DNA of 63,976 bases, the filler included, from Stramenopiles sp. TOSAG23-3 (Eukaryota), in NCBI GenBank assembly GCA_900128585.1. It is 5 parts of 5 records of this genome, joined end to end, with 100 filler letters (N's around TTAATTAATTAA, not from the genome) between each part and the next. Parts side by side here need not be neighbours in the genome. Positions count along the whole stretch, not along the records: positions 25,947 to 38,780 come from LT642662.1; 4 more parts are not named here. The stretch is one strand, 5' to 3'. Of the stretch, positions 1 to 60,753 are shown one piece after another; position 1 is the first letter of the stretch, and the number at the start of each line of letters is the position of its first letter. The notes beneath the pieces are model-generated. The model was not told where the DNA came from, did no database searches, and saw only the letters and a program-made list of their open reading frames with translations. Both the position numbers and the translations under genes were made by a program.

Positions 1-281
1 ACTCCCTGCTAGTTTTTTAATTAAAAAAAGTTCACACACATACACACCCCTCTGGACACAAAACCGGTTAAGTACAATAACCTATATAAATTGATAGTGA
101 AAATAATAAAATAAAACCTTTTTATTGTAAAAAATTTAAAAGCTTTTTCGTCCGTTTTCCTCTTATTAGCTGTTAGTTATTTTTCGTAAGACTAACTCCC
201 TGCTAGTTTCTTATTTAAGTCTACACACATAGGCATACACCCCCGTCTGGACACGGAAGTCGGACAAGTACAATAATCTAC
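1..281. repeat. Degenerate direct repeat, period ~194 nt, downstream of POT1
   Basis: 1-86 (ACTCCCTGCTAGTTT...CACACAT...ACACCCC.TCTGGACAC...AAGTACAATAA.CTA) aligns with 195-281. Confidence 0.8.
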
Positions 282-290
282 AACACACAT

Positions 291-2345
291 TTAGCACACG
301 CGAAAGAAAATCTTCCCTTGGTCTGCACGTATAGATTCAAGACCCAGATTCAACAATGTCGTCGGTTTCACCCGCATCAAAGTCGCAATGTTTGAGACGA
401 GCAAATTTTTGACTGCAGCATTGCCAGGATTGCGAAGGTCGCATGCGGGGAGTCCATTAAACAACTTTTCTCCTTCCGTTCCGTCTACAGCAACCAAAAG
501 GGAGGAACCTTGAATGTCCTTCAACCGCATCGTAAAACTATACTTGTATTCGCCTGATTGCGACTTTTCCGTCATATTCTCAACAGTGCTTAAGATTGCC
601 GCAACCTCTACTTGGACTATCCACAGACCGCCTGCAGCACCGGGGTCGCCCCTGTGTGATTTAACTTGGCACAGAGGGGTGAAGCTGACGTTCTCGCCTG
701 CCAGTGGCTTCACGCCGTTGTAGCTGACCACGCCCGTAGTGCCTCCATACCACGGCTTTCCGGGATTTTCCTCCGCAGGAACTATTTCTTCCACTTGTTT
801 TTCCTCTGTGGACAATAGTGCGTCGATCAAAACGTTTGTTGAAATGTTGTCTGCGCCGTACGAAAGAAAATGGAACCTGGAGCTGCCCTCAAAATACACT
901 GAGTGATCCTGTTCACGTTTCAGGTTTTTGAACTCAGCGCAAAAAAATTTCAAGTTGAAATTGGGTGGGGGGTTGTTTCTGTATAACCTCGCCTGGTAAG
1001 TTTGGCAGACGTTTATGCGTTTACGCGCAACCTTGATGATATGGTCGGAAAACGTTTGGTCTCTGAACAAAACTGGGACAATGCCACCATTGAATTGAGA
1101 GAACCCTTCGTTGAATTTGTTAAAAACTGTGCCGTGGCCCGAAAGTCCCGTCCCGTCTTGAAGCAGTATGATCAGCTTTGCATCACTGGGAACGTTGTAC
1201 TTTTCTAAACTGTACCTATCACCGTGGATCACTCCCGGCTGTCCGACTGGGAAAATCTCGAGAACCAAGGCGCGAGTGCTGAAGTGAAAAAACTCGTGCG
1301 ATGCAATAAAACTCAGACGAATCCCACCGTCTATACTATAATACTCTACGGGTGGCATCGTCTGAAAAAATTGCCTGATTCTTTCCACGATGTCGAAATT
1401 AACCGGTTGGTTGCAACCGTTTTCCCCCTTGCCATTGCCCTCAGTGCTATTGTCATCATAAATCATCACGTAGCCAACTTTTCTTTTCGTGTTGAATGTG
1501 ATTTGGAGCTTGTTCTCCCACTCGCTAACTGACACGCGATGGAGTCGAATGATGTCTCCTCTGGCGGTAAAAAAAGGAAGAAACGAATACGCGTCCTCTC
1601 TAGGCACAAAAATGTTGCACGATACCGTCCCCGATCGGTGCTCGTTCTCTAGGAGCGTCCCGGAAAAAATGTTACTCGTAGGTAGTGCGATGGACATGCT
1701 CACCTTGAGATCATTCCCCCTTGTCTGCTCTGGCAAGCCCATGCTATTAACATACGCGTACAAGTCAATGTCCTTCCTAAGCTGACGTCGCCAAGACTTC
1801 GACAAGTCGCTCATGCACGTAATGTAGTTGAAGGCAGCAGGTAGCCCCCCCCCCGTGATAGCTTGGCGTAGAGCCACTGGCCCTACAGGCGACAGGCCCT
1901 CTGGGTCTGACCTATACGTTTCAAAATTTTCCGGGGATACCATATAAGAAACCTGTGAAGAAATTGTGGAACAGTCTACTTTTATTTCTAGGGGGTTCTG
2001 GGCAGTGTGGGTATCTGATTGAGCCACATTGGTTACTGCGACGCCCTTCCCATATATTCTTATCTCCTTGGACGGTGCCACCTTCCATACGTCCAACAGC
2101 TGCTGTTTCCACAACGACGAAAACTTGATTTCAATCGAAGAGAATCGCGTCGCTTCCGATCCCCGCAGCCCCCGCTCGCTCACACAATCCAGAACTATGT
2201 GAACAAAACCATCGCCCCCTTCCATGCCAGACGAAGAACTCACCCGTGGTTCGTATCGGACAATTCCTCGTATTGAAGCATGTTCCAAGGTATCACCAGC
2301 CCCAAGTGTTGATATGGCAACGTGCGTCTCGAAATAGTCGGCCAT
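291..2345 (-). CDS. POT1: Protection of telomeres 1 (OB-fold single-strand telomere-binding protein)
   Basis: 684-aa ORF. OB1 signature IDLYAYV...PEQTRGNDL...CNIF...LP...GDIIRLHRV; C-terminal OB YSFTMRLKD...EGEKLFNGLPACDL. Confidence 0.8.
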   Translation of the reverse strand: MADYFETHVAISTLGAGDTLEHASIRGIVRYEPRVSSSSGMEGGDGFVHIVLDCVSERGLRGSEATRFSSIEIKFSSLWKQQLLDVWKVAPSKEIRIYGKGVAVTNVAQSDTHTAQNPLEIKVDCSTISSQVSYMVSPENFETYRSDPEGLSPVGPVALRQAITGGGLPAAFNYITCMSDLSKSWRRQLRKDIDLYAYVNSMGLPEQTRGNDLKVSMSIALPTSNIFSGTLLENEHRSGTVSCNIFVPREDAYSFLPFFTARGDIIRLHRVSVSEWENKLQITFNTKRKVGYVMIYDDNSTEGNGKGENGCNQPVNFDIVERIRQFFQTMPPVEYYSIDGGIRLSFIASHEFFHFSTRALVLEIFPVGQPGVIHGDRYSLEKYNVPSDAKLIILLQDGTGLSGHGTVFNKFNEGFSQFNGGIVPVLFRDQTFSDHIIKVARKRINVCQTYQARLYRNNPPPNFNLKFFCAEFKNLKREQDHSVYFEGSSRFHFLSYGADNISTNVLIDALLSTEEKQVEEIVPAEENPGKPWYGGTTGVVSYNGVKPLAGENVSFTPLCQVKSHRGDPGAAGGLWIVQVEVAAILSTVENMTEKSQSGEYKYSFTMRLKDIQGSSLLVAVDGTEGEKLFNGLPACDLRNPGNAAVKNLLVSNIATLMRVKPTTLLNLGLESIRADQGKIFFRVC

Positions 2346-18026: not shown

Positions 18027-20756
18027 TCAAAGTTTTTGCCACCCCGTTGCGTCTGCAACGATGTACTGGTACTTTCGCTGGTGTTCCCTGATGACCAATG
18101 GGATCGGTTCTTTGTACAATCGTTTGAACCCTCGTGCTTCCATTTCGCGAAGGAGCGTGGCGGCGCTGTCGACGGGCTCCCCAGTGCTCTCGTCGTAGTA
18201 GCCGCCCATCCATTGTTCTCGGTTGGTGAACTCTTCCAGCCATGAAAATGGGGTCGTCATGACGACCATCCCCCCGGGCTTCACCATGCGAGACAGGCTG
18301 TCAAGGCAGTCCATAGGTCGGGGCAGCCGACAGATTAAGTTTGCCATGACGATGGAGTCAAATTGCCCAAGTTCCTTTTCGTCCAAATTGCACGCGTCGC
18401 CTTGCAAGAACTTTGTGCGGGCCTTTGCGGCCGCGTCCACGCCGTCTTCATGGCAGGCGAGCACGCGGGCGTGGACGTCTGCCTCCATCGCAATGTTGAA
18501 GTGAATGTCTTCGTTGCCCTTCATGGAGTTTGCGGCGTCGACAAAGGCTTGGCTAAAGTCGATGCCAACCACCTCGTCGTACCGGGTAGCTAGCGTGTAC
18601 GAAGTACCGCCCACGGCGCACCCCAAGTCGAGGGCCCTGGTGGTACTCGATGCGCCGTAGCTCTTGTTGTGCTGGCCATCGAGTTGGAACAGAAGCTCTG
18701 CGACCCGCTGGGGGAACCTTCCGGTCCCGGCCGGGAGGCCCTCGTGGGCCATCATGAAGGGAATGTTTTCCTTCTTTCCCGAGCAGGAGGAGTAGTGCAA
18801 ACCCAAGTATTGGTCGACCAAACTTTGGGTTTCGTACACGTTCGATTCCTTTCTTTCCCCTTCGGTGATCGTCTGTTCCGTCTTCGAAAGCGGTTCGCCG
18901 TCCGCGTCAACTTTCTCCCCTGCCTCGTTCAGGTATGCGGCGGGGGCGGCCGAGTCGGACTTTACCATGCGAAAGCCAGAGTGCTGAAGAAAATGCCTTC
19001 GGAAATGGAAGCGCGCAAATGTGCTGGCCTCGTCCCCCGTGCTCATAAAGGACCCTCCAAGGATCATGTCATGCCGTCCGTCGTAACATGGTACACTGAA
19101 GTCGTCGTACGTCGGGTGGATCTCATAGTTGCACAAGTGGGACCCTCCGACGTAGGAGACCAACCCCTCCTCCAACGGGTTGAAGTTGTCCTCCATGTGC
19201 TCCCACACGTTTCCCATTACGTCGTAATGACCGCTTTGGCTGGGCGCGCCGACGCCCCCCACGGGGCTTGCACTCCCATACGCCAAGTTGAGGTTGGCGC
19301 TTTTGGGGGACGACGGGTCGCGTACGAAGTCTTTCCCCGACATGGACATGACCGGGTCGGCCATCGCGTCCCCTCGGGCCCGTTCCAGGGACACCGCCGG
19401 GTCCTTCAGGAGGTTCCACTCGGCCTCCGTGGGCAGGCGGTACGAGGCTCCGTCTTGCTCCGACTTCCAGGCGCAGTACGCCTTTGCCTCGTGGTGGGTG
19501 ACTTCCGCGGGCCAGTCCCACTGCATGTCGATCGTTTCGAAGATCGTCCTTAGCTTGAACTTGAACGAGCCCTGCGGCCCGTCCCATTCCCAAAAATGTG
19601 GGTCCTTCATGTTCCGGAACTTCCTCCAGCCCCAGCCGTCTTCGGTCCAGTACTTCTCCGTGCGGTACCCCCCGGCCTTAACGAATTCAAAAAAATCCCC
19701 GTTGGTAACCATGTACTCAGTGGCGTGAAACGATGGCGTTGTCACGTCGCGTGTGCCGTACTCGTTGTCCCACCCGTACGACGGGAACTTGCGGGGCTTC
19801 CCGAGCGTAACGTCCCCGCCTTGGACGGCAATGAACCTGTTTTGCGCTGGGTAATGCTCGCCACGGACGGGCGCGTGCGTCTTGCGCGTCGCGTCCCGGG
19901 CGGACGGGTGGAGCTTGGGAAATTCCTTGGGAACCTGGACTAGGCTTTCGGGGGCCTCTCGAAAAAGGACGGAGGACGTTTCGAAATGAATCCGGTCGTG
20001 CTCAAACCCCATGAAGAGCGCCCACAAGGGGTGGTCCCACGTTATCGTGGAGGGGCTGCCCTCGGTCCCGATGTCCGGGTGGGTTGCAATGACGTCCGAG
20101 ACCACTTGGTACACTTCTTTCCGGTACTCATGGGTCTCTTTCACGGTCGGCCAAACCATGTCGTTCTTGTGCATGTCGTCCCAGAGCATCTCATCGACGC
20201 CGGTTTCGTAAATGCTCTCAAAGTACGGGTTGACGCCCTTGTCCAAGACCCCAGCCACTTGCAGTTTGTTCACGTACAGGCACGGGGTGTGGCCGTAGTA
20301 GAAAATCTGGGGGTGGCGAAGCCCGTGCGGCGGCGGCCGGTAAAAATACTCTTCTCCCTTAAGGCCCGCAAACAGTATCTCATACGATGTCCAGGTGTTG
20401 TCGAAGTACGCTTGCGTCTCCTCCCGCGTGACGCGGTCAAGCCGTGGGAGCGCAAGGGACGTAAACGTCCCGTCTTCCAATACCCCCGGGCACTCTCCAA
20501 AAACTGGCCGCTTTCCCGTGTACCACTCGTCCGACCGAGGGCCGACAAGCCAGTTGTCGCACTCTCGGTTCAGGTTGACCATCCAGTCTTCCCTGTGGGA
20601 CAGTTGATCGATACTCTCTTCTGCGGCAGAAGCCGGCGTCGACGCACTCCCAATAGCAGACGCGGACGCCGCAGACGACGAGGACGCCGAAGCGAGACCC
20701 CGGACGTGCGACCCGGCGGTCCTACCAAAGGTTCTGAAGAACCTAGCTTTTAACAT
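18027..20756 (-). CDS. ovoA: Ovothiol biosynthesis enzyme: 5-histidylcysteine sulfoxide synthase / SAM methyltransferase
   Basis: DinB-like domain (LRHPQIFYYGH, GVDEMLWDD, HDRIHFETSSVL = Hx3HxE iron motif), FGE-sulfatase domain (YGWDNEYG, RLPTEAEW, GNVWE, YDDFS, FRRHFLQHSGFR) and methyltransferase (ALDLGCAVG). Likely start MLKARFF at 20756; the frame is open to 20852. Confidence 0.93.
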   Translation of the reverse strand: MLKARFFRTFGRTAGSHVRGLASASSSSAASASAIGSASTPASAAEESIDQLSHREDWMVNLNRECDNWLVGPRSDEWYTGKRPVFGECPGVLEDGTFTSLALPRLDRVTREETQAYFDNTWTSYEILFAGLKGEEYFYRPPPHGLRHPQIFYYGHTPCLYVNKLQVAGVLDKGVNPYFESIYETGVDEMLWDDMHKNDMVWPTVKETHEYRKEVYQVVSDVIATHPDIGTEGSPSTITWDHPLWALFMGFEHDRIHFETSSVLFREAPESLVQVPKEFPKLHPSARDATRKTHAPVRGEHYPAQNRFIAVQGGDVTLGKPRKFPSYGWDNEYGTRDVTTPSFHATEYMVTNGDFFEFVKAGGYRTEKYWTEDGWGWRKFRNMKDPHFWEWDGPQGSFKFKLRTIFETIDMQWDWPAEVTHHEAKAYCAWKSEQDGASYRLPTEAEWNLLKDPAVSLERARGDAMADPVMSMSGKDFVRDPSSPKSANLNLAYGSASPVGGVGAPSQSGHYDVMGNVWEHMEDNFNPLEEGLVSYVGGSHLCNYEIHPTYDDFSVPCYDGRHDMILGGSFMSTGDEASTFARFHFRRHFLQHSGFRMVKSDSAAPAAYLNEAGEKVDADGEPLSKTEQTITEGERKESNVYETQSLVDQYLGLHYSSCSGKKENIPFMMAHEGLPAGTGRFPQRVAELLFQLDGQHNKSYGASSTTRALDLGCAVGGTSYTLATRYDEVVGIDFSQAFVDAANSMKGNEDIHFNIAMEADVHARVLACHEDGVDAAAKARTKFLQGDACNLDEKELGQFDSIVMANLICRLPRPMDCLDSLSRMVKPGGMVVMTTPFSWLEEFTNREQWMGGYYDESTGEPVDSAATLLREMEARGFKRLYKEPIPLVIREHQRKYQYIVADATGWQKL

Positions 20757-21730
20757 GATTGTGGTGGTGTTTGAAAATAAAAGGTGCGCGCGTGTATGTG
20801 TTTTGTTGTTGTTTAACTTTATGTCAAATGCTCGCACGCCATTCCTCATCATTCTTCTTCTTTCTAATTCTTGTTTCTTGTTTGAATTTGAGATAAAATG
20901 ATTTGGTATTATTACAGATGGATGAGCTGGTGGTTCTGGAAGTAGAAGAAGAAAAGGAAAATAACACTTCTTTTAGAGTATAATAATAATATAAAAATCT
21001 ATAATATCATCTCCATATTTTTACTAAATAAGAGAACACAGTATATAAATAATTAAACTTTCGATTCAGCTAATACCAGCAGTAATAATATAATAATTTT
21101 TTGTTGTTTTCATCATTAGAAGATAATAGATGGATATAGCATTGTTATTTTAAAAATGGTTTTTGTACTCCGAACTCCGAACTCCGCATAAATAAATAAA
21201 TAAATAATTAAAATTAATTAATTATTAACATTGAATAGGAAAGAAATACCCCAAATCGAATAGATTTACTGTTCGATTTATATTAATAAAAGGTGAATAG
21301 AAGGGAAAATAATCATGTACGTGAAGTTTGAGATAAAATTACCTAATTGAATAAATTAAAGTATATAAAACAAGCAGAAACAAATAATAACAACAAGTAT
21401 GTAGATTTCCTATTTGTTTTATTTTTTTAATAGAAAGGAGGGTGGACAGATGAAAGAAAGAAACAATCCGCCCACCAATAATCCATCTAAAATTAAGGAA
21501 ATATATTTATAATTAGTATATATGCTATGTATATGTAAATGAGGATTACTTTATCACTTTTTTCATTCTATTTTATTATAATTAATATTGAGAAATGATT
21601 TCATCTAAATCCCTACAAATACATAGATTTATCACAACAAACTGTCTCAATCAATTATTCCTACAAAAACATACCCTTAATTTTACTTATTTTGTCCACC
21701 AACAAGAATGCATAATAATTTATGAAGTAC

Positions 21731-27830: not shown

Positions 27831-28712
27831 AAGAAGAAACAGGAGAGCGAGGAGAGCGAAGAGAGAGAGCATCATCTATTATAATAAATATATTGGGAAA
27901 ATAATTACCAATTTTCATAAAGTACTGTATAGCAGCTATTATATATTTATTAAAATACTTTTTTATTTATATTTTTGATGATTGTTTGTATTTTAATCTA
28001 AACTCTCTTCTTCTTCTTTCCTCTATTTTTTTTACCTTCTGATTTCTTGATTCTTGATGATTGATTTTTTTTTTTTTCTATTATTAATTTTATAAAAATA
28101 ATACATCAGTATAACATTATTTATAGTTCCTATATGAATATGTACTTATTCAGTATATATAATACAGTACTATTTTTTTTATTATGATGACAACCTCCTC
28201 CTCGTATTTTGTACTTAGTTTTAGAATTAACACTAATAATAATTGGAATCTATTAGAATGAATATAAAGTGGAGGTGGTTAGGGTTAGGGTTAGTTGTGG
28301 AGGTCTTCACTTTTTCATTAATTATTACCTTCAATGGTATTCAATGTATATTAAAAATTGCGTATCTTTTTGGCGCGTAAAAAATAATAAAAAAAAAAGA
28401 AGAGGAGACCTATTATAATAATTGTATTTAACAGGTATACAGCATTAAACGAAGAATCAACAAAAAAAAAATAAAAAACACAAGTCAAAAGTCAAAAGAG
28501 AAAACAAAAGATACGATTGGGATTGGATCAATTACAAAGTGCAACCTCATACAAATTAACTGGCTGGTTTTTTTTTAATGAAGGTGTAATTTTTTTAAAC
28601 GGTATTCTTTCATTTTTCAGTTCTGTTCGGGTTTACATCATTTTCGCATTTCCAGCCCATCCAATTTTCCTATTGTGCCCACGCGCCTTCGTAACGCAAT
28701 TGTATAGACAGG

Positions 28713-31700
28713 ATGTCGACGAGACGGTCATCGAGAAAGACCCAGGCGGTCGCTGTGCAGCCCCCCGGGGCTTCGAGCCAGCCAAGGGCCCTGGGAAAGC
28801 GCAAAGCGCCGCTGATGGGAAATGCCACGCCGTTGGGACTCGCCGAACGAGGGGAGGCGCGCAAGAACCCCAAGGCCACGCCCAGGGACCAGATCAGCTT
28901 TACGGACCGCTTCTTCTTGGACGTCGTGGTGGGGCTGCAACAGGCGGGGGACGCGACGACGACGCCGGGGTTTTTCAAACGGCTCTCAAAAACCTTGCAG
29001 AAGGAGGCCGCCATAAATAACGCCGACGATAACGTGCAAAAGCACCGGGCCCCTGCGGAGCTTACGAAATGCTCCATACTCGAGGCACGGTTGAGGTACA
29101 AACGGCTGGAAAAGTCTGGGCTGCTGACGCCCTCGGCGAGCGCGCATAGGGCACAGGCGGGCCAGCAGAACAGTGCCGCCCAGGGCGCCAGCTCCGCCCA
29201 GTCGTTCCAGTCCAACAGTACGGTGAGCCGCCACTCCACGGGCAGCAGACGAGACAACGGCGGGCAGGGGAGCGGCCGCCTCGACGTTCCCGCCTCCACG
29301 AACGCCAACAAGAGGAAATGGGACGGTGGGCACGACACCGGCAGCGGCGGCGGCCAGAGCAGGGGCGCCCGTATGATGCGCGTAGGGAATAGAAGCACGG
29401 ACAGCGCCCAGAGTAGTGAGGCCACCGGGCGCTCGGGGGACGCGCAGGGTAGCGCATCGGCCCTTCGGAACGTGTCCGGGGGCGCCACGATGCTGACCAG
29501 CCCGGGAAGCACCCCCAGCAACACCAGCGGCACCACCACCGCCACCCTTCTTGGCAGCCCGTCCGAGGGGTTCTCACCACGGTACAGGTCGCAATCGCTG
29601 CGCGCCCTGCCAGCGCCGAGCATCTTGCAGCCGGAAAGCGCCGGCACCGCCCTTGTCGTAGCGCCCAGCTCGCTGTCAAGGCGGGTGGGGCAGGTTGCGC
29701 ACCAGCGCCGCAACCCCCCGGCCACCATTTTTCGCCCCCAGCACCCGATGTTTTCCCATTTCAAGGCGTGCCAGAACGTTCTGAGGAAGCGCCTGTCCCT
29801 GCTGCACGTCCCGGACACCAAACAGCTCGTGGGCATCGAGAAGCAGCGGTCCGACGTTCAACGAATTTTGGAGCGCACGATGAGGGCAGCAGAAAACAAC
29901 TCCGTCCTGATCCTCGGGGCGAGGGGACGGGGGAAGAGCGTCCTGCTGAACCATGTCCTAAAATCCATCAAAAAGAAATTTGTAGAAACGCCGAGGCAAC
30001 GGTCAAAGCGCTCGAGCGCGTCGTCGGCCAGGAGCGACCGAATCCCGGTATCGACTCTTGCGTCCCCCCCGATGCTGTCGCAGAGAGGGGACGCGCAGCG
30101 CGGCCAGCGGCAGGACGCCCGCCGCCCGCTTATGCTGTCGTCCCCGCGCGTGTCCTCCTCAAGAAGCAGCAGTAGCGAGAGTGAGCGGTTGGCCCTTGGC
30201 AGCGGCCGCGCGAGCAGGGGGCTGTCCCTGTCTCGAAACCGGCGCGCGAAGCGGAGCACGGTTGCGCGGCCGCGCGTCCTGGTATTGGGAAGCGCGGCAA
30301 AATCGGGATACGAGTGGGCGAAGCTCTTGAAGAAGATCAACGGCACCCTGGAGACCTCGAACGGCTCGGCGGTGACCCACGTCGTCCTCGAGGACAACTC
30401 GATCGAGCGGTCCCTTGAGCTTTTGGAGATTCTGGCAAAGCCCTCCGTCCAATGGCGCAGCGGCTCGGCGTCGTCGTCGTCGAGCCGGAGCTCGCGGAGC
30501 ACCGCCGCCCACATCGTGTCCATTGACTGGGTGTTTGCGGGCATTGAGGCCGGGTACGCGGTGGAAGAGACGGATTACGTTCCCGAAGACCCGCGGTTCG
30601 AACGAACTTACGGGATTTCGATGGAGGAGGCCCTCTCTCGCCGGAAGAGCGGGAGCGCGCTCCTGCAGCACTGCACGGTATACATCACGGCCGGCGTGAC
30701 CCCGGGCCGCTCGGCGCTTCGAAAGTGCATCACGAATGCTGGCGGGAAGGTCTTGAACAGTCTACCGAAGCAAAGAAATTTTGGCGGGGCCCTGGGGGGC
30801 TTTGGGCTTGGCAGCGGCCAAAGCGGCGGCAGCCAAAGCGGCAACGCCTACGGCTTTCTCCCCATGAGCACGAGCATTGCAGGGCAGTCGGCCGACCTCA
30901 TGTCCCCACTGTCCCCGGCCTTTGTCCCACGGACGTCCGGGGCACGGCGCCTGCTGGTCATCGGGACCCGAGAAGACCTTTCGGAGGAGAACGGGGCGCC
31001 AAGCGACGATCGGTCCGGCGGCGTACGAATCGTAGACAAGCTGCGCACGCTGGGGGTCGAAAAAGTCTACAACGTGAACGTGCTGCTCGACGGCATTTTG
31101 CACCACCGCCTATCGCTGGCAGAGAATGTTCTGCTGAGTCTGACGGGGGAGACGGAGGAGTACGCGGCCGTCCCGTCCCCGGCAAGCGGGGAAAGTCCCA
31201 GGCAGGCGGGGGCGGACAGCGGGGCGGAGGCCGACGACGACGACGGGCTGTCCAAGTACGAAAAGGATCGCCTCGAACGGATCCGCGACAACCAGGCGTT
31301 CATGGAGTCGATCGGGCTGACGTCGGTGCGCCGGGACATTGCCGACGCGATGGGTGGGAAGCTGGGGGTTGAGGCTAGGGGGGACGAGGCCAAGGGGGAC
31401 GAGGCCAAGGGGGACGAGGCCAAGGAGGACGAGGCCAAGGGGGACGAGCTGGACGATGCCTCCGCTCTCCCGCCACCGCCAGAACGCCACGTGGGGAACC
31501 TGTCGTCCACCGCCCCGTTCGTTGTAATCCGCCTGAACGGGCTCGTTCACTCCGACGAGAAGACTGCGCTAAGGGAGATCGGCCGGCAACTGTACCTGGA
31601 GTACGAGTCGTACAAGATCAGTTCGCGCTCCCTGAGCTTTGGGCACCACGTCCAACTCTTGCTGGACGTGCTGCGGGAGGCCAAGGGGGTGAGCGTGCCG

Positions 31701-32636
31701 ATCGTTTTCGTTCTAGACGAGTTCCAGGGCTTCACAATGCGCCCGAAGCAGACCCTCCTGTACCACCTCTTGGATATTCTGCAGTCGGGCGAGACGCAAA
31801 TGGCCGTGGTCGGCTTGACGGAAAAGCTGGACGTCGTGGAGTCGCTCGAGAAAAGGATCAAGTCCCGGTTCTCGCACCGACAAATCTACGTCCCCCCCAT
31901 ATCGCTCGAGCAGACGGTACTGGTCCTCAAGCAGACCCTCGAGCTGGAGGCGTCCGCGTGCCCGGACACCAGCGCGTCCTTCGTTTCCAAGTGGAATTCC
32001 CAGGTCCAGGCCTTGGCCAAGTCAAGGGACTTTCGGGGCTGCATCGAACGTTACCACAGCATCGGGCACCCAACCAGGTGGTTTCTTCGCCTGGCCTCTG
32101 TCGCGCTGAGCTTTCTCAACTTTGCGTCCTCCGAACGGGCGTCGTACGCTGCCCCGTTTCTGAAGCTGGACCATTTCAAATTGGCGCTGAAGAAGCTCGT
32201 GGTAGACCGCCGCGACCTGGGCTTCAAAACGCTCACGACGGTGGAGACGATGCTGCTCCTGTCCATCGGCCACTTAGAAAAATGCAACAGCGTCCCGTAC
32301 AATTTTGAAATGTGCTACGACGAGTACACGAAGCTGCTCCGCTTGGAAGACGAGGGGGGGAGCGTCGGGATCTCCACGTACAAGTTTTCGAAGCCTATCA
32401 TGTTCAAAGCCTTTGAGCATTTGCTGGCCATCGGGCTCTGCAAATCAGTGGGGGTCGGGAGCACGGGCGTCTTTCACGGCGTGCTTGCTAGCAACAGCTC
32501 CAGCGCCAGGCAGTACGACCTGAGGTACCAAGGGGTCCGGCTATTGTTCGGGATGCAGCACTTGAAGGAGCTGTTTCGGGGGAGAAGGGAGGATTTGCCA
32601 ACGTTGGTGAAGACGTGGACGCAGAAGTGGATTTGA
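28713..32636 (+). CDS. ORC4: Origin recognition complex subunit 4 with N-terminal extension and inserted tandem BRCT
   Basis: 1307 aa; ENNSVLILGARGRGKS (Walker A), LNGLVHSDEKTALREIGRQL, IVFVLDEF (Walker B), KQTLLYHLLD, LEKRIKSRFSHRQI, YNFEMCYDEY and KAFEHL (winged helix). Confidence 0.92.
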   Translation: MSTRRSSRKTQAVAVQPPGASSQPRALGKRKAPLMGNATPLGLAERGEARKNPKATPRDQISFTDRFFLDVVVGLQQAGDATTTPGFFKRLSKTLQKEAAINNADDNVQKHRAPAELTKCSILEARLRYKRLEKSGLLTPSASAHRAQAGQQNSAAQGASSAQSFQSNSTVSRHSTGSRRDNGGQGSGRLDVPASTNANKRKWDGGHDTGSGGGQSRGARMMRVGNRSTDSAQSSEATGRSGDAQGSASALRNVSGGATMLTSPGSTPSNTSGTTTATLLGSPSEGFSPRYRSQSLRALPAPSILQPESAGTALVVAPSSLSRRVGQVAHQRRNPPATIFRPQHPMFSHFKACQNVLRKRLSLLHVPDTKQLVGIEKQRSDVQRILERTMRAAENNSVLILGARGRGKSVLLNHVLKSIKKKFVETPRQRSKRSSASSARSDRIPVSTLASPPMLSQRGDAQRGQRQDARRPLMLSSPRVSSSRSSSSESERLALGSGRASRGLSLSRNRRAKRSTVARPRVLVLGSAAKSGYEWAKLLKKINGTLETSNGSAVTHVVLEDNSIERSLELLEILAKPSVQWRSGSASSSSSRSSRSTAAHIVSIDWVFAGIEAGYAVEETDYVPEDPRFERTYGISMEEALSRRKSGSALLQHCTVYITAGVTPGRSALRKCITNAGGKVLNSLPKQRNFGGALGGFGLGSGQSGGSQSGNAYGFLPMSTSIAGQSADLMSPLSPAFVPRTSGARRLLVIGTREDLSEENGAPSDDRSGGVRIVDKLRTLGVEKVYNVNVLLDGILHHRLSLAENVLLSLTGETEEYAAVPSPASGESPRQAGADSGAEADDDDGLSKYEKDRLERIRDNQAFMESIGLTSVRRDIADAMGGKLGVEARGDEAKGDEAKGDEAKEDEAKGDELDDASALPPPPERHVGNLSSTAPFVVIRLNGLVHSDEKTALREIGRQLYLEYESYKISSRSLSFGHHVQLLLDVLREAKGVSVPIVFVLDEFQGFTMRPKQTLLYHLLDILQSGETQMAVVGLTEKLDVVESLEKRIKSRFSHRQIYVPPISLEQTVLVLKQTLELEASACPDTSASFVSKWNSQVQALAKSRDFRGCIERYHSIGHPTRWFLRLASVALSFLNFASSERASYAAPFLKLDHFKLALKKLVVDRRDLGFKTLTTVETMLLLSIGHLEKCNSVPYNFEMCYDEYTKLLRLEDEGGSVGISTYKFSKPIMFKAFEHLLAIGLCKSVGVGSTGVFHGVLASNSSSARQYDLRYQGVRLLFGMQHLKELFRGRREDLPTLVKTWTQKWI

Positions 32637-32735
32637 AAGGTTTAGAACCCCTGATAATTAATCGATTTATTTTTCGCTGACTATATTGTCGTCCTAATAA
32701 AAACTGATATTATAAAATTTACATACACTATCATC

Positions 32736-33299
32736 TCAAAATGACTCCGCGTGGTCGACAAAGTTCTGCTCCAACCGCCCGAGGGCCCTCTCCGGCATGA
32801 CAAGTTTGAACCGGTACGGGTTCCTCTGCCCCACCTCTAGGTTTTGAAAGTGCTGCAGCTTGCACGCCGATTGAAGGGCACGGTACAGTCCCGACGAACG
32901 ATCGATGCAATTCAGGTCGGCAGCCGTGATCCATACGATCCCACTGGCATTTGACTGTATCTTTTTGTTCTCTGGAAAATTTTGAAACGCCTTCAAGAGA
33001 AGGTCCAAAAGCCCACTGCCCAAAGCGGCCTCCCGATTCGGTGGGTGGTCCAGCAGGTAGTACAACACGTTCAAACACAAAAACTGCACGTCTTGTTCCT
33101 TTTCGCAAACTCTCATGCACGATAAGATCGCTTCTATGCACCCAGACGCGCCTATGCTTGCCCTTGCGCCATACACTGACATTCGGAGGGCGCCCAAACC
33201 GGCAGCCACATCGTTTACGGGGACCGGGGTCAAGGACACCGCGTCAGAGAGCAGGGTGGAAAAACCAGAAAAGTCGCGAGCTCGTAAGGCAGACTTCAT
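32736..33299 (-). CDS. Hypothetical armadillo-like helical repeat protein
   Basis: 187 aa; GCIEAILSCM...DVQ...LYYL and GLLDLLLKAF.NFPEN.KIQ.NA ARM-like repeats. Confidence 0.6.
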   Translation of the reverse strand: MKSALRARDFSGFSTLLSDAVSLTPVPVNDVAAGLGALRMSVYGARASIGASGCIEAILSCMRVCEKEQDVQFLCLNVLYYLLDHPPNREAALGSGLLDLLLKAFQNFPENKKIQSNASGIVWITAADLNCIDRSSGLYRALQSACKLQHFQNLEVGQRNPYRFKLVMPERALGRLEQNFVDHAESF

Positions 33300-52289: not shown

Positions 52290-55200
52290 ATGCCCACGCC
52301 GAAAGTGCCGAACGGGCCGGCCGCCCTCTACCATGGCGACACCCCGTGCCCGTGCTCGTTCGATTTATTCAACCCGGACGACCTGTCCATTTTGCGCTGC
52401 CTGGACGACTTTAGCGTCACCAGCAACGAGACCGGCGAAATGGTCGGCTTGATGTCGATCCAAGGCTCCAGCAGCGGACAGAACTTGAGGGCCAACGTTC
52501 GGGCCAACGGAGCGTACAGGGTCTTCCCGCTGCGGTCGGCCGTGCCGCCGCTCTTGACCGCCGGCGAGTGGGTGGCCGTCCTGACGCGCGTCGCGGCGAG
52601 CGCGTGCGCGGAGGCCTTTCGGGACCCTCCGCAGGCGGCGGACTGCCCAGACTACGCCAGCTTCGTCGAGGAGCCGATGGGCCTCGGCGAGCTGTTGAAA
52701 GGGCTCAAAGAGGGCCGGTACCGGAGCGAGGACGAAACGCTGTTCGTAGAGTACTGGGACGTCGCGTCCGTGGAGTCGAGCAAACGGCCGGTGGCGATGC
52801 AGTTTTTGTTGGATTTGAACCTGCTGTGGGCCAACTGCCGGTCCTACTACTGCATGGGGAGGACGCTCGGGGCAGGGGAGTGCGAGGCGATGAACGGCAA
52901 GGCCGACGAGCTCGAGGCGGTGACGACGAGGCTGGTGCTGGAAGCCTGGGCCTCCAAGAAGGCCGGGAGGAAGGCGCTCGCCGAGAACGACCGCAGTGCA
53001 GCAATGAAGGAGGTAATAGACGCGATGGTGGGCGACCCGTTTTGCGCGGCGTTTTTGGCACCCGTGGACCCCAAGGCCCTCGGCCTTACGGACTACTTCA
53101 AGGTCGTCGCGCGCCCGATGGACCTCGGGACCGTGCGGAAGAAGGTGCTCGCGTCGGCGTACGCGTCCTGCAACGCCTTTGCGGAGGACGTGCGGCTGAT
53201 TTTTGAGAACTGCTGCCGGTACAACGCCGCAGGGTCGGAAATATGGTGCGTGGCGCGCATCATCTTGCAGCGGTTTGAACGGGCGCTTTTGGCGGTGTTT
53301 GGCCCGGGCGCGGAGGGCGCGTGCGACACCTTTTTTCTGGGGGGGGGGCGCCGGGCCGACGGGCCAGGCCACCGCGTTTTTGCAGCCCGGGGCGTGCATC
53401 CCCAAGGTCGCGCAGGACACCGTCGATTTTCAAAAGGGCCGCGGCGGCACGGCGAGGCGATGGCTAAAGTCCAGCGAGGGGGTATTTTATTCCATTTTTG
53501 ACACCCGCCGCCGCCCGTCCACGGCCGCGCTTCGCCCCTCGACCGAGTACGCGCCGCACTTCGAAGCGAGCGCGGCCGGCGCGGCATTTCTGGCGGCCCT
53601 GAAGAGCCTTCTGCTGGAAGACGGCGCGGTGAAAGTGGACGCGACGTCAAAATCCGGCCGCTCCCTGAAGAGCAAAAAGAAAAACGCCCAATTATTCGTG
53701 GAGCAAGCATTGAGCGTGGCCGGAACGGACCAGTCGTTCCTAGAGTCGTACGGGGACTTGGTCGCGTCCCAGGTTCGATTGTTTCCGCCGCCGCTGAACA
53801 CGGCGCACAAGACGGCGCACTACATCTTCTCGTTGGCCACGGTGCTGGGCAAGCGGAAAGTGCAATGGAACGAAGCACGGGAGGCAAAGAAGCTGGCGGA
53901 CGCAGCGAAGCGGCAAAAAAAGGAAGCCGAGGCCGAGAGAAAGAGGCAGGAGAAAGAGCGGCTGAAGCTGGAGCGGGAGAAGGCGAAGCAGGCGCTGAAA
54001 CAAGAGCGGGAGGCGAAGAAGAAAGGAAAGGAGGAGCAGAAGAAGAAAGAACGAGAGGAGAAACAGCGCCGGTCAAAGGAAAAAGCGTTAGAGGCAAAGA
54101 TGAAAAAGGAGCTTGCTGCCCAAAAGAAATCTCCTAACAAGCCCAAAATGACCATAAAATTATCAATCAAGGGAAGAAAAGCGACGAGGGCAGCGACACC
54201 GGCGAAACAGGCGGCCCCGAAAGATTTGCGAGACCCGTTCGACGATTTGGTCATTCTGGAAAAGTTAGAGAAAGACACGACGGCCACTGCCCAGCCTTTC
54301 CCCACCCCCGGCGCCTTGTCCTTGTGGATCGACCCTACCATCGCCGGGGACAACCGCACTACCGGGGCCTTGAGGACGGAGAGTTCGATATCGGCCCATG
54401 CGCGGAAGCACGCGGGAGATTTGAACAAGTTCATCGGCGTCCGAAAACTTAGGAAAGACGAAAAAGTTGGGCAACCCGCTGTACTGCAAAAAGAAACGTC
54501 GCAGCAAAACAAGTGGTTGGCGGAAATCTTTGTCGGAACGTACGCAAGATCCCTTGGCACGTTCCCGACGGCAACGGAGGCAGCACGGGCCTATGACCGT
54601 GCGGCCTTGATCCACCTTCCGAAACGTTCGCCTTTGAACTTTGACGAGCCCGACTACCTGGACGAGGAAGGCATGTTTGGGGTTACGACGGTCTCCCTCC
54701 TTCCAAACAGGCGCAATGACGCAAAGACCTCGGGCAACGGGATTCGACTGTCGAAGCACGCGGCAAAGAAACCGCCTTATGTAAAACTTAATGTCCACCC
54801 GTCCATGCTGTGGTCATTTGTCCATGTATGCGAATCTTTTAACTTGTTCCACCAGGCGCTAAAAATCAAAAAGGTCCAGCTCGGGGATCTGGTGTCAGCT
54901 GTTTATTTGCATCACTCGTACGACTGCGCAAACAAGAGAAACACGGACATTGTGCGGCGTGGGTCGTACCTAATAGCGCAGTTGCATATATCATTGCTAC
55001 GGGCAATTTTTATGGAGCAAAGGACGAGCCAAAAAGGTGTGTTTTCGGCTGTTGCCCAGGCCAAGCTGAAGAAGCGAAGGGGCGTGGACACGGCGCAGAG
55101 GTGGGCGTACCGGCGGGCGTTGAACGAACACTACGACCTTGAAAGCGGAATAAACGGATCTGTTGGGTTTCTTGACGTTTCAAACAGCGATGAAGGGCCA

Positions 55201-58200
55201 CGTTTGAGTGTGCCCCTGAAACCGTCCGATAAGTCGACCGCCCAGAGCACAGCGAAGAGGGCCACCCTCCTGAAAGAAAGCAACATAACGGCGGAGTGGG
55301 TGCTCCCCAGCGCAAAATTCCACGTTTTTACGGATCCAGCGGAGCCTTTGGACATCACGTGGCGGCGCACGAATGCCTCGTTTGCTGTCAGTTTGCGAGC
55401 GTTCTTCGATGCCCGGGGCATGACGTTGGGAAAGGCGCCCATTCTCGCAAAAATCCCCTTTGACATGTACAAGTTGTATTCGTGGGTGGTTAGCAAGGGG
55501 GGCTACAAGATGTTTGCTCAAAAGTCCATGTGGAAAGAAGTGGGCCCGCACTTACAAAATTACGTTGAAAGCAACGCGCAAGCGCCTTACATTATTGCCA
55601 GACTGTACCAAAAATACCTGGCGCATTACGAAGAGTATTTCAACGAAGGGCACGGCAAAGTAAAGCCCGGGGTACCTTTGTACGGCGTGAAAGACTTCAA
55701 AGGAGCCCCGATCGGGGAGGTGCTTACCAAAACCATTGTTCGCCCCAGCTCACCTGGAAAGGTTAACGGTACGGCGCCCGCCGGTGGTTCTCAAGGGAAC
55801 GTTGCCGTCGAGGTGAAGCGCGAGCCCGAGCCAAAGGTCAAGGAAGATGTGGCTCCCAAAGTGAAGGAAACGAGCCAATCGGCGAAGAAGAAAACACAGA
55901 CGACATATGACCTAGATTCTATCCCGGTGTTTGCATCGACTATTTTGAATGCACAAACCTGGACCAGTATACTGTCGTGCTTTGTGGAAGACATGGTGTA
56001 CCTCTCCAAAGACGAAGATTTTTTGTCTGTGCCGGACAAAGAAGACATCGACCGGGAAATGTCTTTGCTGAACGAGTCTGCATTTGGAGAAACCCTCGAA
56101 GCAGCCGAAGGCCCGTCGAAGTTTCGGCTGAACGCAAAAACCAGAGCAGCGCTGGGAAAAGTGGAGTATTTGTGCTACGAACCAGCCTTTGGCGGCGCCC
56201 TCAACCCCGAAACGGACCAAAGCCTCTGTTACGGTGGACCCATAGACCAGTGCGAACAGCTGCTTAAGTCAATGATCATGCACCCTGTCTCGCAAATATT
56301 TTTTGACACAGCAGAGGGCCACCGTAGGTACCATTTGGAAACGAAGAAGCCGATGGATTTACAGACGGTATGGAACTTGTTCAAGGCCGGGTACTACTTT
56401 ACCCCGCACGGGGGCTTGAAACATGCTAAATTCGAAGAAGATATGGCGTTGATATGGTCGACGTGGAAGGCCTTTGATGCCGGGGAAAATTTTGCCCGGT
56501 GGCAGCAAGCCGATGAGTTCGAGAAAGTGTTCAAACGAAAGTGGGAGCCGATAAAGGCTCTCTGCATAAGCCACGAAAAGGCGCACTTAGGCTGTGCGCT
56601 TCCCGGCGACCGAGTCATGACCCCGTACGGAGTGGGAACGTTCGTAACGTCACACGACAACCACTTGAAAGCGATCGTGGAGCTGGACTGGGAACTCGCG
56701 AACGGAATTCATCCTACCATGTATTGTAAAGTCAACCTATTGAGCGTGTTGCCGAATCCTAGGCCCGCACTCTCCAGTTTTGAAGATCCTGACAACTGGT
56801 ATGGGACCAAGGTCAAGTTGCAGGAAAGTCACGGTGTGACTCCCTCTAAAGTCGGAATGGTCGGGACGATCGTAGACGCGGGAAAAATGTCACACGGGTG
56901 GCGGAATATCAAGCTTGACGTGGATGGGACCGTGGTGACATGGCGCCTGTCGGCGCTGGAAGTTTTGGGCAAAGACTCCGAGCAGACCGAAACTGATAAG
57001 CCGCTGCAGACGGTGGGCGCAACCGGGGAAAACCCAGAAGCTGGGATCGATGCAATGGACGTGAAAGCGTTCAATGTACGAAGTACGTTCTACACCAGAA
57101 TGGGCAAGAATGTGCACTCGTCGATGAAGAACGTTGCCCCTGCCGACCTCGCCAAGGCTTTGAAGAAAAAAGAGTACAGTGAAATAGTACCCGAAAAGCG
57201 CATTTCAATCCTATCGTACCTCTGCGATACGCTGCTGGGCTGCTCTACCGTCCGGGAACTGATCAAAAGCGATCTCGAACATGCGGCCCGACGGCGAGAG
57301 CGAAAAGAAGAGAGTAGCAGCGAAGAGGAGAGCAGCGAAGAAGAAGGGGACAGCAGCAGCAGTGACAGCAGCGGGGACGAAGACAGCGATGGAGGGGACA
57401 CGAAGAAATCACCCAGTGCTAAACGAAAGGAGGCAGCGCCCAAATCGGAAATTACAAAAGTTTCCAGCACGAAGCTATTGTTTCGAGGACCCGCGCGCGC
57501 CCCAAAGGCCCCGGTATCGTACAAGCAAAGCATTTCACCTGTAAAGTCAGCAGGGAAACGGCAGCAGGCCCCGAAGAAGATGACGAAAGCCGAACTGCGA
57601 ATGACGCAGCAAGATCTGTCCGCGTTGAAACGAAAAGTGTCAAAATTTGAACGGAGTTACACGGACAAAGTAGTAAAGCATGCCCTGGGTAAAGGCCCGA
57701 ACCCCGGACCCTTTCCCGAGTTTGTGGCGCACGAGGGGAAGACAATTTCCTCGGAAATGTCCGAACACGATAAAGTGGCGTATAAAGCGAAATTTCCAAA
57801 AATCGCAAAGAAGCAATTGCCGAAAGTTAGCAGCTCTTTCGTTGACGTTCTTACGATGCACGGTGTCCAGCCTGGATTAATGTACACTCGGACTTCGTTT
57901 GGTACCGTGTGTGACAAAATTTTAGCAGAAATAGTTTTGTCTGTAAAAGCCAAGGAAGACCAAAGAGCGGTTTTGGACCTGCTCGTTGGACTCCGCAAAG
58001 GAAAGTACGGCCTTGAAAATTCTGAATTGAAACTTGATTTCTTGGAAGATGTTCGGCAAACGTTAGCATCAGTATCCAAGCGTGGCAGAGTTGATTTTCT
58101 GGGGCATTTCCTTTTACGCATAGTGCCTCAGCTCGCTGCGCGCAAAAAGCAACACCTGTGGCCAGGACAGGAGGTGTACTTGTTAGATGCATCTGGAAAG

Positions 58201-60753
58201 TACGGCAAAATAAGGAAAGCCGTCGTGACCCAGGAAGGGAAGTTTAAACTGCGCGACGGAACGTTACTGCCGCCAAAACTCTTTTTGTTCCCAGACAAGT
58301 CAAAGAAGAAAAAGATGACTCTTCCCACGGCATCCCCAAAGGGCAACCCAACAGCAAATACGGGTATCCTGGCAGCAAACACGGGCGCTGTTGTAGATGG
58401 TCCAGAGGGCCAAAAGAAAGGCGAAGATGATAACTTTGATTTTTGGATGTATGAAAAGTCTTGGGCCTTTGCCTCCGACCAACGCTCGTGCGAAAAGTTT
58501 TTTTCCGGGAGATTGGCAGCGATAGAGAAGGAAATGTATTTTACAGTCGCCTTGGACCCGGATAATTTTCGTTTTCTGACGTATTTGAGCAAAAAATACC
58601 CCACGAAGAAGAATTTAGATTCAAACACTCAATTCTTACGAAGCGAGTGCCTTGGAACCGATCGGTTTTTCAACAGATACTGGTATTTCATTCGTAGAGG
58701 CACTGATCGTTTTCTGTCTTCTTATATTTTTATCGAGCTTACAGAGCTCGGCGCAAAACATGTGCACCCGAATTTGTCCAAATTGTCTCTTACCGAAGGG
58801 TCATGGTTGTGTATATCGGGCCATCAAAAGCTGAAAGAATTACTCTGTTCGCTCTTCCCGGACGGGAAACGAGAGAAGCGTCTGCGGTATGCTCTATCGA
58901 AAATATACAACACGTTCCTAGCCGCATCCGTGGACATGGGCGCATCCATCGAGTCCCCCAGCCCGTTTGGCGGCGAAATTTTGTCAAAAAAACTGTGCGT
59001 CGGTAGTGGTGATGGGATCGGCCTCACGTTGAAGAGCGTTGCCTGGTTAGCCAACGGCATCACCTTTGTAGAATACGATGAAAGTCGCACGTTCAACCGG
59101 GGAGACATAATTATTAAACTTGATGATAAATCGACGTTTGGGATGAGCACGATGCAAATTTCAGATGCCATTGCAGCGCGTGTCAAGCGTGGTGCACGAG
59201 AGATACACGTGATGGTGCAACGCCCAAAAAGCCCTGTGTGGATAACTGCGCGCCCTTGTACAGTTGGGCAACCAACGTTGACGCATGGCATGGATACTTT
59301 GGCACACGTTCAATTGCTGAGATACGAAGCGACTGCGTATGCACTGTTTCATCTTGACGCCATTAAGCACGTGTCTGACTCTTGGCTTTTCCTTTTCGGC
59401 CGAATTGGTTGGTCGTGGCCGGAGCGTCGCATGACATGGCGAGGGCAGATTCTTGAAGCTTTGCGAACTGGGAAATACTTATCGTGCAACGAAATCGCTA
59501 AAATGGTAGCTTTGTTCGAAGACGCTTATACGGGACTTTTGCCCCCGGTGAATCCTTCTTTCTCATCGGTAGACATGTTGCATGCTTTTGAGGGACTATT
59601 AAACGATGCCAGCGTGGCCAAGTTAAGCATTGAATACGCGAGCCGAAAAAAAAAGAAACTACACGATGAGGAGGAAGTGCCTCAGGATACCGTTCATGCA
59701 GGCTGGTTCGGCGACGCACTGGACTTTTCCGCCAACCCGCTGCCTTCACTGAACGGCGTTGTCAAAGAGTTGGACTTTGTTTCTACGTACCAGCAGGGCA
59801 TTGTAATCCTAGATTGTATTTGCTCCGAATTGGCAAGGCGATTGGGCAATGCTGTTGTGACCAATGACATGATGACTTCTTTGGAAAAACAGTTTCAAGT
59901 GGAGAAGATTACGCACCGCAACTTCGCATACCAGACATTTTTGAGGCAGAATGGGCGCTTCGACTCGGAGTATGAAAAAGATAAGTTTCAAGGAATTGCA
60001 AAACGGGGAAATCGTTGGACGAAATCATTCGAATTACAGATTGCTTTTGACAGTCCAACGGTGCCACCAATTGTAGAAACTGTCATCCCTACCTTGTTGG
60101 AGACAATAATGCGGCGCGATGCATGGGCACGAACGTTGTATGGTGCTTCTCTGTCGAGAAAGTTAGTGGTTTACAATTATTTGTCTGCTTTGGACTGGGT
60201 GCCGTTCGTTGAAATGGCAGAGATCCACCGCAGTGGCGTTTCTGTCGCCAACTCTGTTTTGCCGACGTCGCTTCATCTATGCCCTGTTTGCAATGCAGGG
60301 TTTAAAGTTCGCGCGAACCTCAACAGTCACGTAAGGACAAAGCACCAGCATACCTTGACTGTCTTTTCACAACACAACGGGTTTCAGTACCGCAGCTTGC
60401 GAATGAGGGGGCGTCCCACAAAATTCCACAGCAACACGTACAAAGACGACGGTGCAAAAAGTGCAGCCAAGCGGAGCTTGGGCATTAGTTCTTCTTTGCA
60501 ACCATTTAAACGTCGGAAACCTACTGGCACAAAGTCTGGAAAACCAAACCCCAAAGGAGGCGATTTTCCATGCTCGGAGTGTGGTGCCATTCTAGGCAGC
60601 AGGGACAGTCTGAAACGACACATTAAAAACCAGCACGTGAACAGAGGAAACCAAAGGTACCCCTGCAATTTCTGTTCGAGCGTCCTGAGTTCGAAGGATA
60701 GCCACCAGAGGCACATGCGAACTTTGCACCCCGTCGAACACTCTTCGCGTTAA
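52290..60753 (+). CDS. Giant BAZ/DDT-WHIM-like chromatin protein (~2820 aa): bromo-bromo-AP2-DDT-ARID-bromo-WHIM1-WSD-PDZ-like-C2H2x3; one frameshift in a G10 run
   Basis: ORF 52281-53501 (PDY...EPMGL; TDYFKVVARPMDLGTV...DVRLIFENCCRYN) joins ORF 53203-60753 if one G is removed at 53339-53348; domain motifs are listed in the findings. Confidence 0.8.

Follow-up and report, generated by a model that had tools for sequence, protein, structure and literature searches.

An ORC4 protein from an uncultured marine eukaryote with a tandem BRCT module embedded in its AAA+ domain

The ways in which the origin recognition complex (ORC) chooses origins and is restrained from using them vary widely among eukaryotes, often through accessory modules on core subunits. 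A gene in the window studied here, a 63,976-nucleotide stretch (filler included) assembled from Stramenopiles sp. TOSAG23-3, raises the question of where in a subunit such a module can be placed, and what it might do there. The gene encodes an ORC4 in which some 515 residues, including a pair of BRCT repeats, lie inside the AAA+ ATPase fold. A first-pass annotation made from the sequence alone had read it as ORC4 with an MDC1/PTIP-type tandem BRCT pair inserted in that fold, and had proposed that the pair wires origin licensing to a chromatin or damage signal. The architecture is real and expressed, and it is conserved across a small group of marine eukaryotes that have not been cultured; the proposed ligand is doubtful. 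The parts of the gene on which these statements depend are listed below, with the basis for each.

28713–32636, + strand: whole ORC4 coding sequence, 1307 amino acids plus stop, single exon (ATG-to-stop frame, codon composition)
29730–29972, + strand: N-terminal piece of the ORC4 AAA+ domain, residues 340–420, with helix α0, strand β1, P-loop and helix α1 (aligns with human ORC4 20–85; pLDDT 83–97)
29916–29939, + strand: Walker A, residues 402–409 (motif GxxGxGK[ST])
29973–31517, + strand: insertion of about 515 residues (421–935) between helix α1 and strand β2 (human ORC4 alignment; comparison with ORC4 representatives)
30267–30560, + strand: BRCT repeat 1, residues ~519–616, with a Ser-rich loop of about 22 residues ahead of strand β4 (Pfam BRCT at 534–607; predicted β-α pattern; end of the repeat aligns with MDC1)
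30660–31136, + strand: BRCT repeat 2, residues ~650–808, interrupted by a disordered loop of about 60 residues (686–744) (Pfam BRCT_2 at 650–685; MDC1 and PTIP alignments to ~688)
31518–32633, + strand: remainder of ORC4, residues 936–1307, from strand β2 onward, with Walker B (D1002-E1003), lid and winged-helix domain (human ORC4 95–387; ORC4_C at 1072–1278; pLDDT mostly above 90)

An ORC4 subunit in two pieces

The gene encodes the ORC4 subunit of an uncultured marine eukaryote. Pfam ORC4_C (PF14629) matched residues 1072–1278 with 82.2 bits against a gathering cut-off of 25.3, and P-loop/AAA families matched residues 364–461 and 946–1056. When the protein was compared with all PDB chains using phmmer, human ORC4 was recovered at E = 6.5e-53 as two stretches that adjoin each other in the human sequence: residues 353–420 aligned with human residues 20–85, and residues 937–1245 with human residues 95–387. 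ORC4 chains in that search ranged from 6.5e-53 to 8e-21, whereas the best Cdc6/Orc1 chain reached 4.3e-8. All six columns that are invariant across 78 aligned ORC4 sequences are present in the window protein; the Walker A glycine and lysine are nearly invariant in the same alignment. The E-K-R...S-R-F-S block, which carries the arginine finger in ORC4, is conserved as well. The protein therefore shares with canonical ORC4 (human, PDB 5uj7 chain C and 7jpo chain D; Drosophila; budding-yeast Orc4) its Walker A and B motifs, the E-K-R...S-R-F-S block, the lid and the C-terminal winged helix. It differs in two additions, the module of about 515 residues with two BRCT repeats in the α1–β2 loop, where human ORC4 has a loop of about 10 residues, and an N-terminal extension of about 339 residues. 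The limits of the open frame (28713–32636), the Walker A motif (29916–29939) and the resumption of the fold near 31518 had all been placed exactly by the first-pass annotation.

An AlphaFold2 model of residues 340–1307, built from 78 aligned sequences, had pLDDT values of 83–97 for model residues 1–90 and mostly above 90 for 590–968, with low values in most of the insert. The insert departs after helix α1 (model residues 69–86) and returns at strand β2 (598–603). VIA-align matched 403 residues of human ORC4 (7jpo_D, 406 residues) to the model range 11..966 (Z = 28.2, rmsd 5.5); a local Foldseek alignment of the model covered only about 372 columns. The VIA-align Z scores were 24–28 for ORC4 chains, 20–22 for archaeal Orc1/Cdc6, approximately 19–21 for eukaryotic ORC1 and approximately 16–17 for ORC5. 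The two halves are thus predicted to come together as an ordinary ORC4 fold, a possibility that the first-pass annotation had left to structure prediction.

The BRCT repeats were identified by family profiles and by direct comparison with solved structures. Both Pfam matches lie just above threshold (BRCT, residues 534–607, 23.3 bits against a cut-off of 21.3; BRCT_2, residues 650–685, 29.7 bits against 27.3). Direct matches to the PDB by phmmer were firmer, with MDC1 at 4.5e-11, PTIP BRCT5/6 at 3.6e-8 and Brc1 BRCT5/6 at 4.3e-5, and a profile search of the PDB with the BRCT pair gave MDC1 at 3.7e-12. The family assignment of the first-pass annotation is borne out by these results. The match to MDC1 is limited to the end of BRCT1, the linker between the repeats and the start of BRCT2. 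When the N-terminal half of BRCT1 was searched alone, either as a sequence or as a four-sequence profile, there was no significant PDB match, and the best BRCT-related rows had E values of 0.7–1.8. The predicted order of strands and helices fits two BRCT repeats, and the C-terminal half of BRCT2 is conserved in all five lineages described below. In an Atlas comparison, the BRCT region fell with BRCT clusters at 0.83–0.88, values that we treat as leads only.

Structure prediction of the pair was of low confidence. AlphaFold of the BRCT pair alone, from four sequences, gave a mean pLDDT of 45.7, and in the larger model the pair was mostly below 60. Foldseek with this poor model returned only BRCT proteins (PTIP, MDC1, Brc1 and BARD1); because the TM scores were 0.2–0.33 and the model is poor, these matches offer weak support. 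The C-terminal tandem BRCT of MDC1 (2ado, 2azm, 3k05), PTIP BRCT5/6 (3sqd) and fission-yeast Brc1 BRCT5/6 (3l40) are the best matches in sequence and the top fold matches of the weak model. The pair in the window differs from all three in that it is embedded within another domain rather than C-terminal, has a Ser-rich loop in BRCT1 and has a loop of 60 residues in BRCT2.

Expression, conservation and rarity of the architecture

The coding frame runs through the insert without a break. Over its 515 codons there is no stop in the ORC4 frame, while the other two forward frames contain 11 and 7, so the open frame is far beyond chance. The G+C content at third codon positions (GC3) is 0.79–0.87 in all six segments of the gene, the two linkers and the BRCT pair among them, against a G+C content (GC) of 0.26–0.27 in the flanking intergenic DNA. 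The whole window is similarly two-toned in composition, with coding GC of 0.58–0.70 and GC3 near 0.8, and intergenic GC of about 0.26 (for example, 28000–28650 and 32640–32735); its long genes are single open frames.

Public sequencing runs support the continuity of the locus. Twenty of the 24 runs listed, from 11 studies, contain the stretch or part of it, and 14 hold at least half of the sampled words. X5, an independent DNA run, covers all 30 bins of 28400–32900. The upstream junction of the insert is bridged by an RNA contig (X16 record 7, 29819–30144) and the downstream junction by two (X15 record 4, 31427–31610; X16 record 9, 31459–31628). Further RNA contigs lie inside the insert, one of them from a second study (X17, 31048–31317). 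No joints were reported in the RNA contigs crossing either junction. The transcript evidence bears on the gene from 29758 onward, since the RNA contigs give no cover over 28400–29758 and are uninformative on the 5' end. Its quality counts against the conclusion that the architecture is real and expressed: the contigs are metatranscriptome assemblies of depth 2–9, RNA libraries can contain DNA, and X15 and X16 are one sample, so that both bridged junctions come from a single sample. The same is true of two single DNA contigs in X5, which diverge into unlike sequence, one at 30470, inside a Ser-rich loop, and the other at 31862; these loose ends may be branches of the assembly graph, at a Ser-rich repeat and at a strongly conserved block of ORC4, or may come from a co-occurring relative. 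Taken with the coding GC3, the open frame and the relatives that share the layout, the bridged junctions mean that the insert is neither an intron nor a misassembly, two of the outcomes by which the first-pass reading could have failed.

The same layout recurs in other genomes. A search with the insert found P0002, which is the same protein, and P0003, a protein of 1136 residues with 38% identity over the insert that one source calls ORC4. Metagenome contigs scanned with an alignment of the BRCT pair yielded four loci (L001–L004) representing three further lineages. L001 encodes P0003, L002 and L003 encode near-identical proteins of 1476 residues, and the L004 contig begins inside BRCT1 and continues to the ORC4 C terminus. 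Each of the four keeps its parts in the same order within a single open frame. P0004 (669 residues, 35%–39% identity) is a 5'-partial gene model from a more distant lineage that spans the linker between the repeats, BRCT2 and a helical motif and runs on into ORC4; P0023, P0005 and P0152 are fragments of L004-like and L002-like species. ORC4 with the embedded module is therefore conserved in at least five related lineages, including that of the window. The layout, found in at least four lineages besides the window, is not unique to the genome in which it was first noticed.

This conservation is at the level of protein, because the open reading frames (ORFs) of the relatives have GC of 0.46, 0.35 and 0.42 against about 0.63 in the window. 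In the BRCT region, 74 columns of 304 residues are invariant, and the BRCT cores and the helical motif retain 42%–57% identity across lineages whose ORF GC spans 0.35–0.63. L002 (3126–7556) and L004 (1–2454) have, in addition, a basic, Asn/Lys-rich insertion of about 35–45 residues in the lid that neither the window nor L001 has; it falls at the point corresponding to the junction of window residues ~1079 and ~1080.

Beyond this clade, an internal BRCT module is absent from the ORC4s that we examined. When residues 340–1307 were compared by phmmer with a set of 1.84 billion representatives, 1780 hits reached E ≤ 0.001, and the best 150 of them were re-aligned locally. Only four of these 150 aligned with the core of the insert (P0002, P0003, P0004 and P0023), and all belong to this clade. 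In 133, both flanks of the insertion site were present and lay a median of 5 residues apart (range −7 to 125); 13 showed one flank only. Among the 63 ORC4-like hits longer than 560 residues, to which the Pfam scan was confined (85 others were shorter), none had a BRCT family at E ≤ 0.001. Six of these 63 (P0063, P0076, P0101, P0109, P0110 and P0139) have one or two PHD fingers at the N terminus, ahead of the AAA+ domain. A search of full-text literature, which does not extend to supplementary files, found no paper on an ORC4–BRCT fusion; PMC7052976 mentions both terms in unrelated contexts. The statement in the first-pass annotation that no ORC4 with this architecture had been described thus stands for the literature searched and, outside the clade, for the ORC4s examined.

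The origin of the BRCT pair was sought among stand-alone proteins. Of 8000 shorter candidates scored, none was a relative of the pair at E ≤ 0.001, and a profile search recovered only two fragments, from the same clade. Because the word filter of both searches was probably swamped by the Ser-rich loops, neither result shows that a donor gene is absent.

Targeting modules grafted onto ORC subunits include the AT-hooks of fission-yeast Orc4, the BAH domain of ORC1 and the PHD of plant ORC1. These, like the ORC4s with PHD fingers noted above, resemble the window protein in that an accessory module is fused to a core subunit. They are N-terminal appendages, whereas the module in the window is a BRCT pair inside the ATPase fold. 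By analogy, the BRCT module would parallel these grafts, and a BRCT pair conserved within the fold of ORC4 would be a new solution of that kind. It indicates that an initiator AAA+ protein can accommodate a folded module of 500 residues in its α1–β2 loop. So far, only metagenomes have yielded this lineage, and the group is worth culturing or sequencing from single cells.

The phosphate pocket and the role of the module

The insert consists, in order, of a linker with an RxL and a Ser-Pro motif, the tandem BRCT pair with a helical linker between its repeats, an acidic stretch that varies among relatives, a helix that is conserved and a second acidic segment as spacer. Four features outside the BRCT cores bear on its role or delimit its parts.

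30120–30149, + strand: conserved RxL-type motif with a Ser-Pro-Arg site after it, residues 470–479, in the first linker (the same in L002; a similar R-R-L...S-P-x-K in P0003)
30897–30917, + strand: L-x-S-P-L-S-P motif, residues 729–735, in the BRCT2 loop (conservation among relatives)
31245–31355, + strand: helical motif after the BRCT pair, residues 845–881 (invariant columns; predicted helix 848–866 with pLDDT 68–83)
31380–31448, + strand: acidic five-residue repeats, residues ~890–912, species-specific (absent from P0003 in the alignment)

The motif in the first linker has the consensus R-R-P-L-x-L-x-S-P-R and is a putative cyclin-docking site combined with a site for a cyclin-dependent kinase (CDK). 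In the BRCT2 loop, S731, P732 and L733 are invariant between the window and P0003; P732 is present in all five sequences and the Ser-Pro pair in four of five. The helical motif has 25 invariant columns of 56 over four lineages, and its first half is recognizable in P0004 as well; it had no PDB match and no meaningful Pfam match at E ≤ 10. The acidic repeats are encoded by about 4.5 copies of a 15-base tandem unit.

The ligand suggested by the resemblance to MDC1 depends on the phosphate pocket of BRCT1. In MDC1-type pairs strand β1 ends in Ser/Thr-Gly, and MDC1 Thr1898 is a phosphate ligand. By motif position and predicted secondary structure, β1 of BRCT1 ends instead in Leu/Met-Gly across the four lineages aligned. 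Helix α2 begins with Arg-Ser/Thr-x-Glu in all four, where MDC1-type pairs have Arg-Thr-x-Lys at the motif-matched position. MDC1 Lys1936 and Gly1899 contact the phosphate, and Arg1933 contacts the C terminus of H2A.X, according to an excerpt of PMC11014961. Two phosphate ligands of BRCT1 thus appear to be lost, one of them replaced by an acidic residue. Because the phosphate-binding Ser/Thr and Lys appear to be replaced by Leu/Met and Glu, the ligand is more likely to be an unphosphorylated or non-canonically recognized partner than γ-H2A(X). With Leu/Met and Glu at these positions in four lineages, it is doubtful that an MDC1-like pair here reads γ-H2AX or a damage signal, as the first-pass annotation had proposed.

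The position of the insert suggests where the module would sit. In the AAA+ topology, strand β2 leads to a pore-facing or initiator-specific element, and its start is directed at the outer rim rather than toward the ATP site or the DNA channel. The BRCT pair therefore probably projects from the periphery of the ORC ring, at a distance from the ATP sites. There it could serve as a docking platform, tethering ORC to a partner that is bound to chromatin or acts in replication. The proline-directed Ser/Thr sites conserved in the loops of the module suggest that it may be under CDK-type control in the cell cycle, a form of control known for other licensing factors. With moderate confidence, we favor a peripheral module for protein docking and regulation on ORC, with CDK-like sites and a non-canonical ligand.

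Several points weigh against this proposal. The correspondence of Leu525 and Glu569 to MDC1 Thr1898 and Lys1936 was drawn from motif position and predicted secondary structure, and all four HMMER alignments to MDC1 start only at β4 of BRCT1, so that they miss the half that bears the pocket. Arg566, the counterpart of the arginine that holds the H2A.X C terminus, is invariant. The outer-rim placement was reasoned from general AAA+ topology. The pocket also tolerates some change, since the plant reader BCP4 binds γ-H2A.X with Asn at the Lys position (excerpt of PMC11014961). BCP3 and BCP4 resemble the pair in the window as MDC1-type tandem BRCTs with a diverged pocket (Asn for Lys); BCP4, a stand-alone protein, keeps polar, uncharged phosphate ligands, whereas the window pair appears to be acidic at that position and is embedded.

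The pair could instead be a working phosphopeptide reader, as the first-pass annotation had proposed, and would then switch licensing on or off by binding γ-H2A at damaged chromatin, a replication partner phosphorylated by CDK or DDK, or its own phosphorylated Ser-Pro loops. The closest solved structures are MDC1, PTIP BRCT5/6 and Brc1 BRCT5/6, and both 2azm and 3sqd are titled as complexes with γ-H2AX. The Arg-Thr-x-Lys-type motif retains its Arg and Ser/Thr, conserved Ser-Pro sites lie beside and within the pair, and BCP4 manages without the Lys (excerpt of PMC11014961). However, a Leu or Met rather than Ser/Thr precedes the conserved glycine of β1, the pair resembles MDC1 in the linker and BRCT2 and not in the half that bears the pocket, and Glu occupies the Lys position in four of four lineages, where, if the motif-position mapping holds, its negative charge would repel phosphate. 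We consider a canonical reader of γ-H2A(X) or of phosphopeptides unlikely on these residues. Equally unlikely is the wider idea that the embedded pair reads any phosphorylated mark, whether γ-H2A, a CDK-phosphorylated partner or its own Ser-Pro loops acting as an intramolecular switch. Were it true, cell-cycle or damage signals would directly gate the binding of ORC to chromatin or the loading of MCM; either such reading or a CDK switch would link licensing control and signaling in one polypeptide.

Single BRCT domains of RFC1, PARP1 or BARD1 bind DNA or nucleosomes directly. The pair and its flanking basic stretches might do likewise and provide ORC with an additional grip on origins that does not depend on sequence. 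Basic runs do precede BRCT1, BARD1 BRCT–nucleosome entries are among the fold matches of the weak model (ranks 9–14 and 45), and the added AT-hooks of fission-yeast Orc4 bind DNA. The basic runs are poorly conserved, however, the module is surrounded by acidic linkers, and its sequence is closest to peptide-binding pairs, which makes direct binding of DNA or nucleosomes quite improbable.

The insert could also be a passenger, captured in a permissive surface loop and tolerated there without a role of its own. The insertion loop is at the surface, long parts of the insert are of low complexity and diverge fast, and other lineages have ORC4s with insertions near this site, unrelated to this one and as long as about 125 residues. 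A passenger would not be expected to keep 42%–57% identity and many invariant columns in its BRCT cores and helical motif, even in the distant P0004, or to share the codon usage of the rest of the gene, and we regard this explanation as very unlikely. That the insert is an artefact (an unrecognized intron, a nested gene or a chimeric assembly) is scarcely credible: the RNA contigs leave gaps within it, the DNA run X5 has the loose ends noted above (30470 and 31862), and gene callers split the orthologue of one relative (P0023 and P0005), but the insert is in frame with coding GC3, RNA contigs bridge both junctions without joints, 14 runs hold at least half of the sampled words and the continuous frame is repeated in four independent metagenome contigs.

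The N-terminal extension and neighboring genes

Two further features lie outside the ATPase domain and its insert.

28896–29132, + strand: conserved N-terminal module, residues ~62–140 (conserved in the window, L001 and L002 proteins)
32736–33299, − strand: gene of 187 amino acids converging on ORC4 (no Pfam family at E ≤ 1e-5)

The first-pass annotation had called the N-terminal extension mostly disordered. Its approximately 339 residues are poorly conserved except for a module of about 80 residues, so that the extension is not only disordered. The module had no Pfam match of any meaning at E ≤ 10 and no usable Atlas match; its pattern of hydrophobic and basic residues recalls, as an impression only, a small winged-helix domain. 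Homologues of the 187-residue gene (185–191 residues) occupy the same position and orientation downstream of ORC4 in L001, L003 and L004, so the two form a conserved gene pair.

The window as a whole is rich in genes for chromatin and genome maintenance. It encodes a POT1-like telomere protein (291–2345, − strand), a fusion of an FGE-sulfatase domain and a methyltransferase (18027–20852, − strand) that we take to be ovothiol-synthase-like, a double-bromodomain protein (52290–53501, + strand), a 2217-residue ARID/WSD/C2H2 protein (54100–60753, + strand) and Rad9 (60850–62070, − strand).

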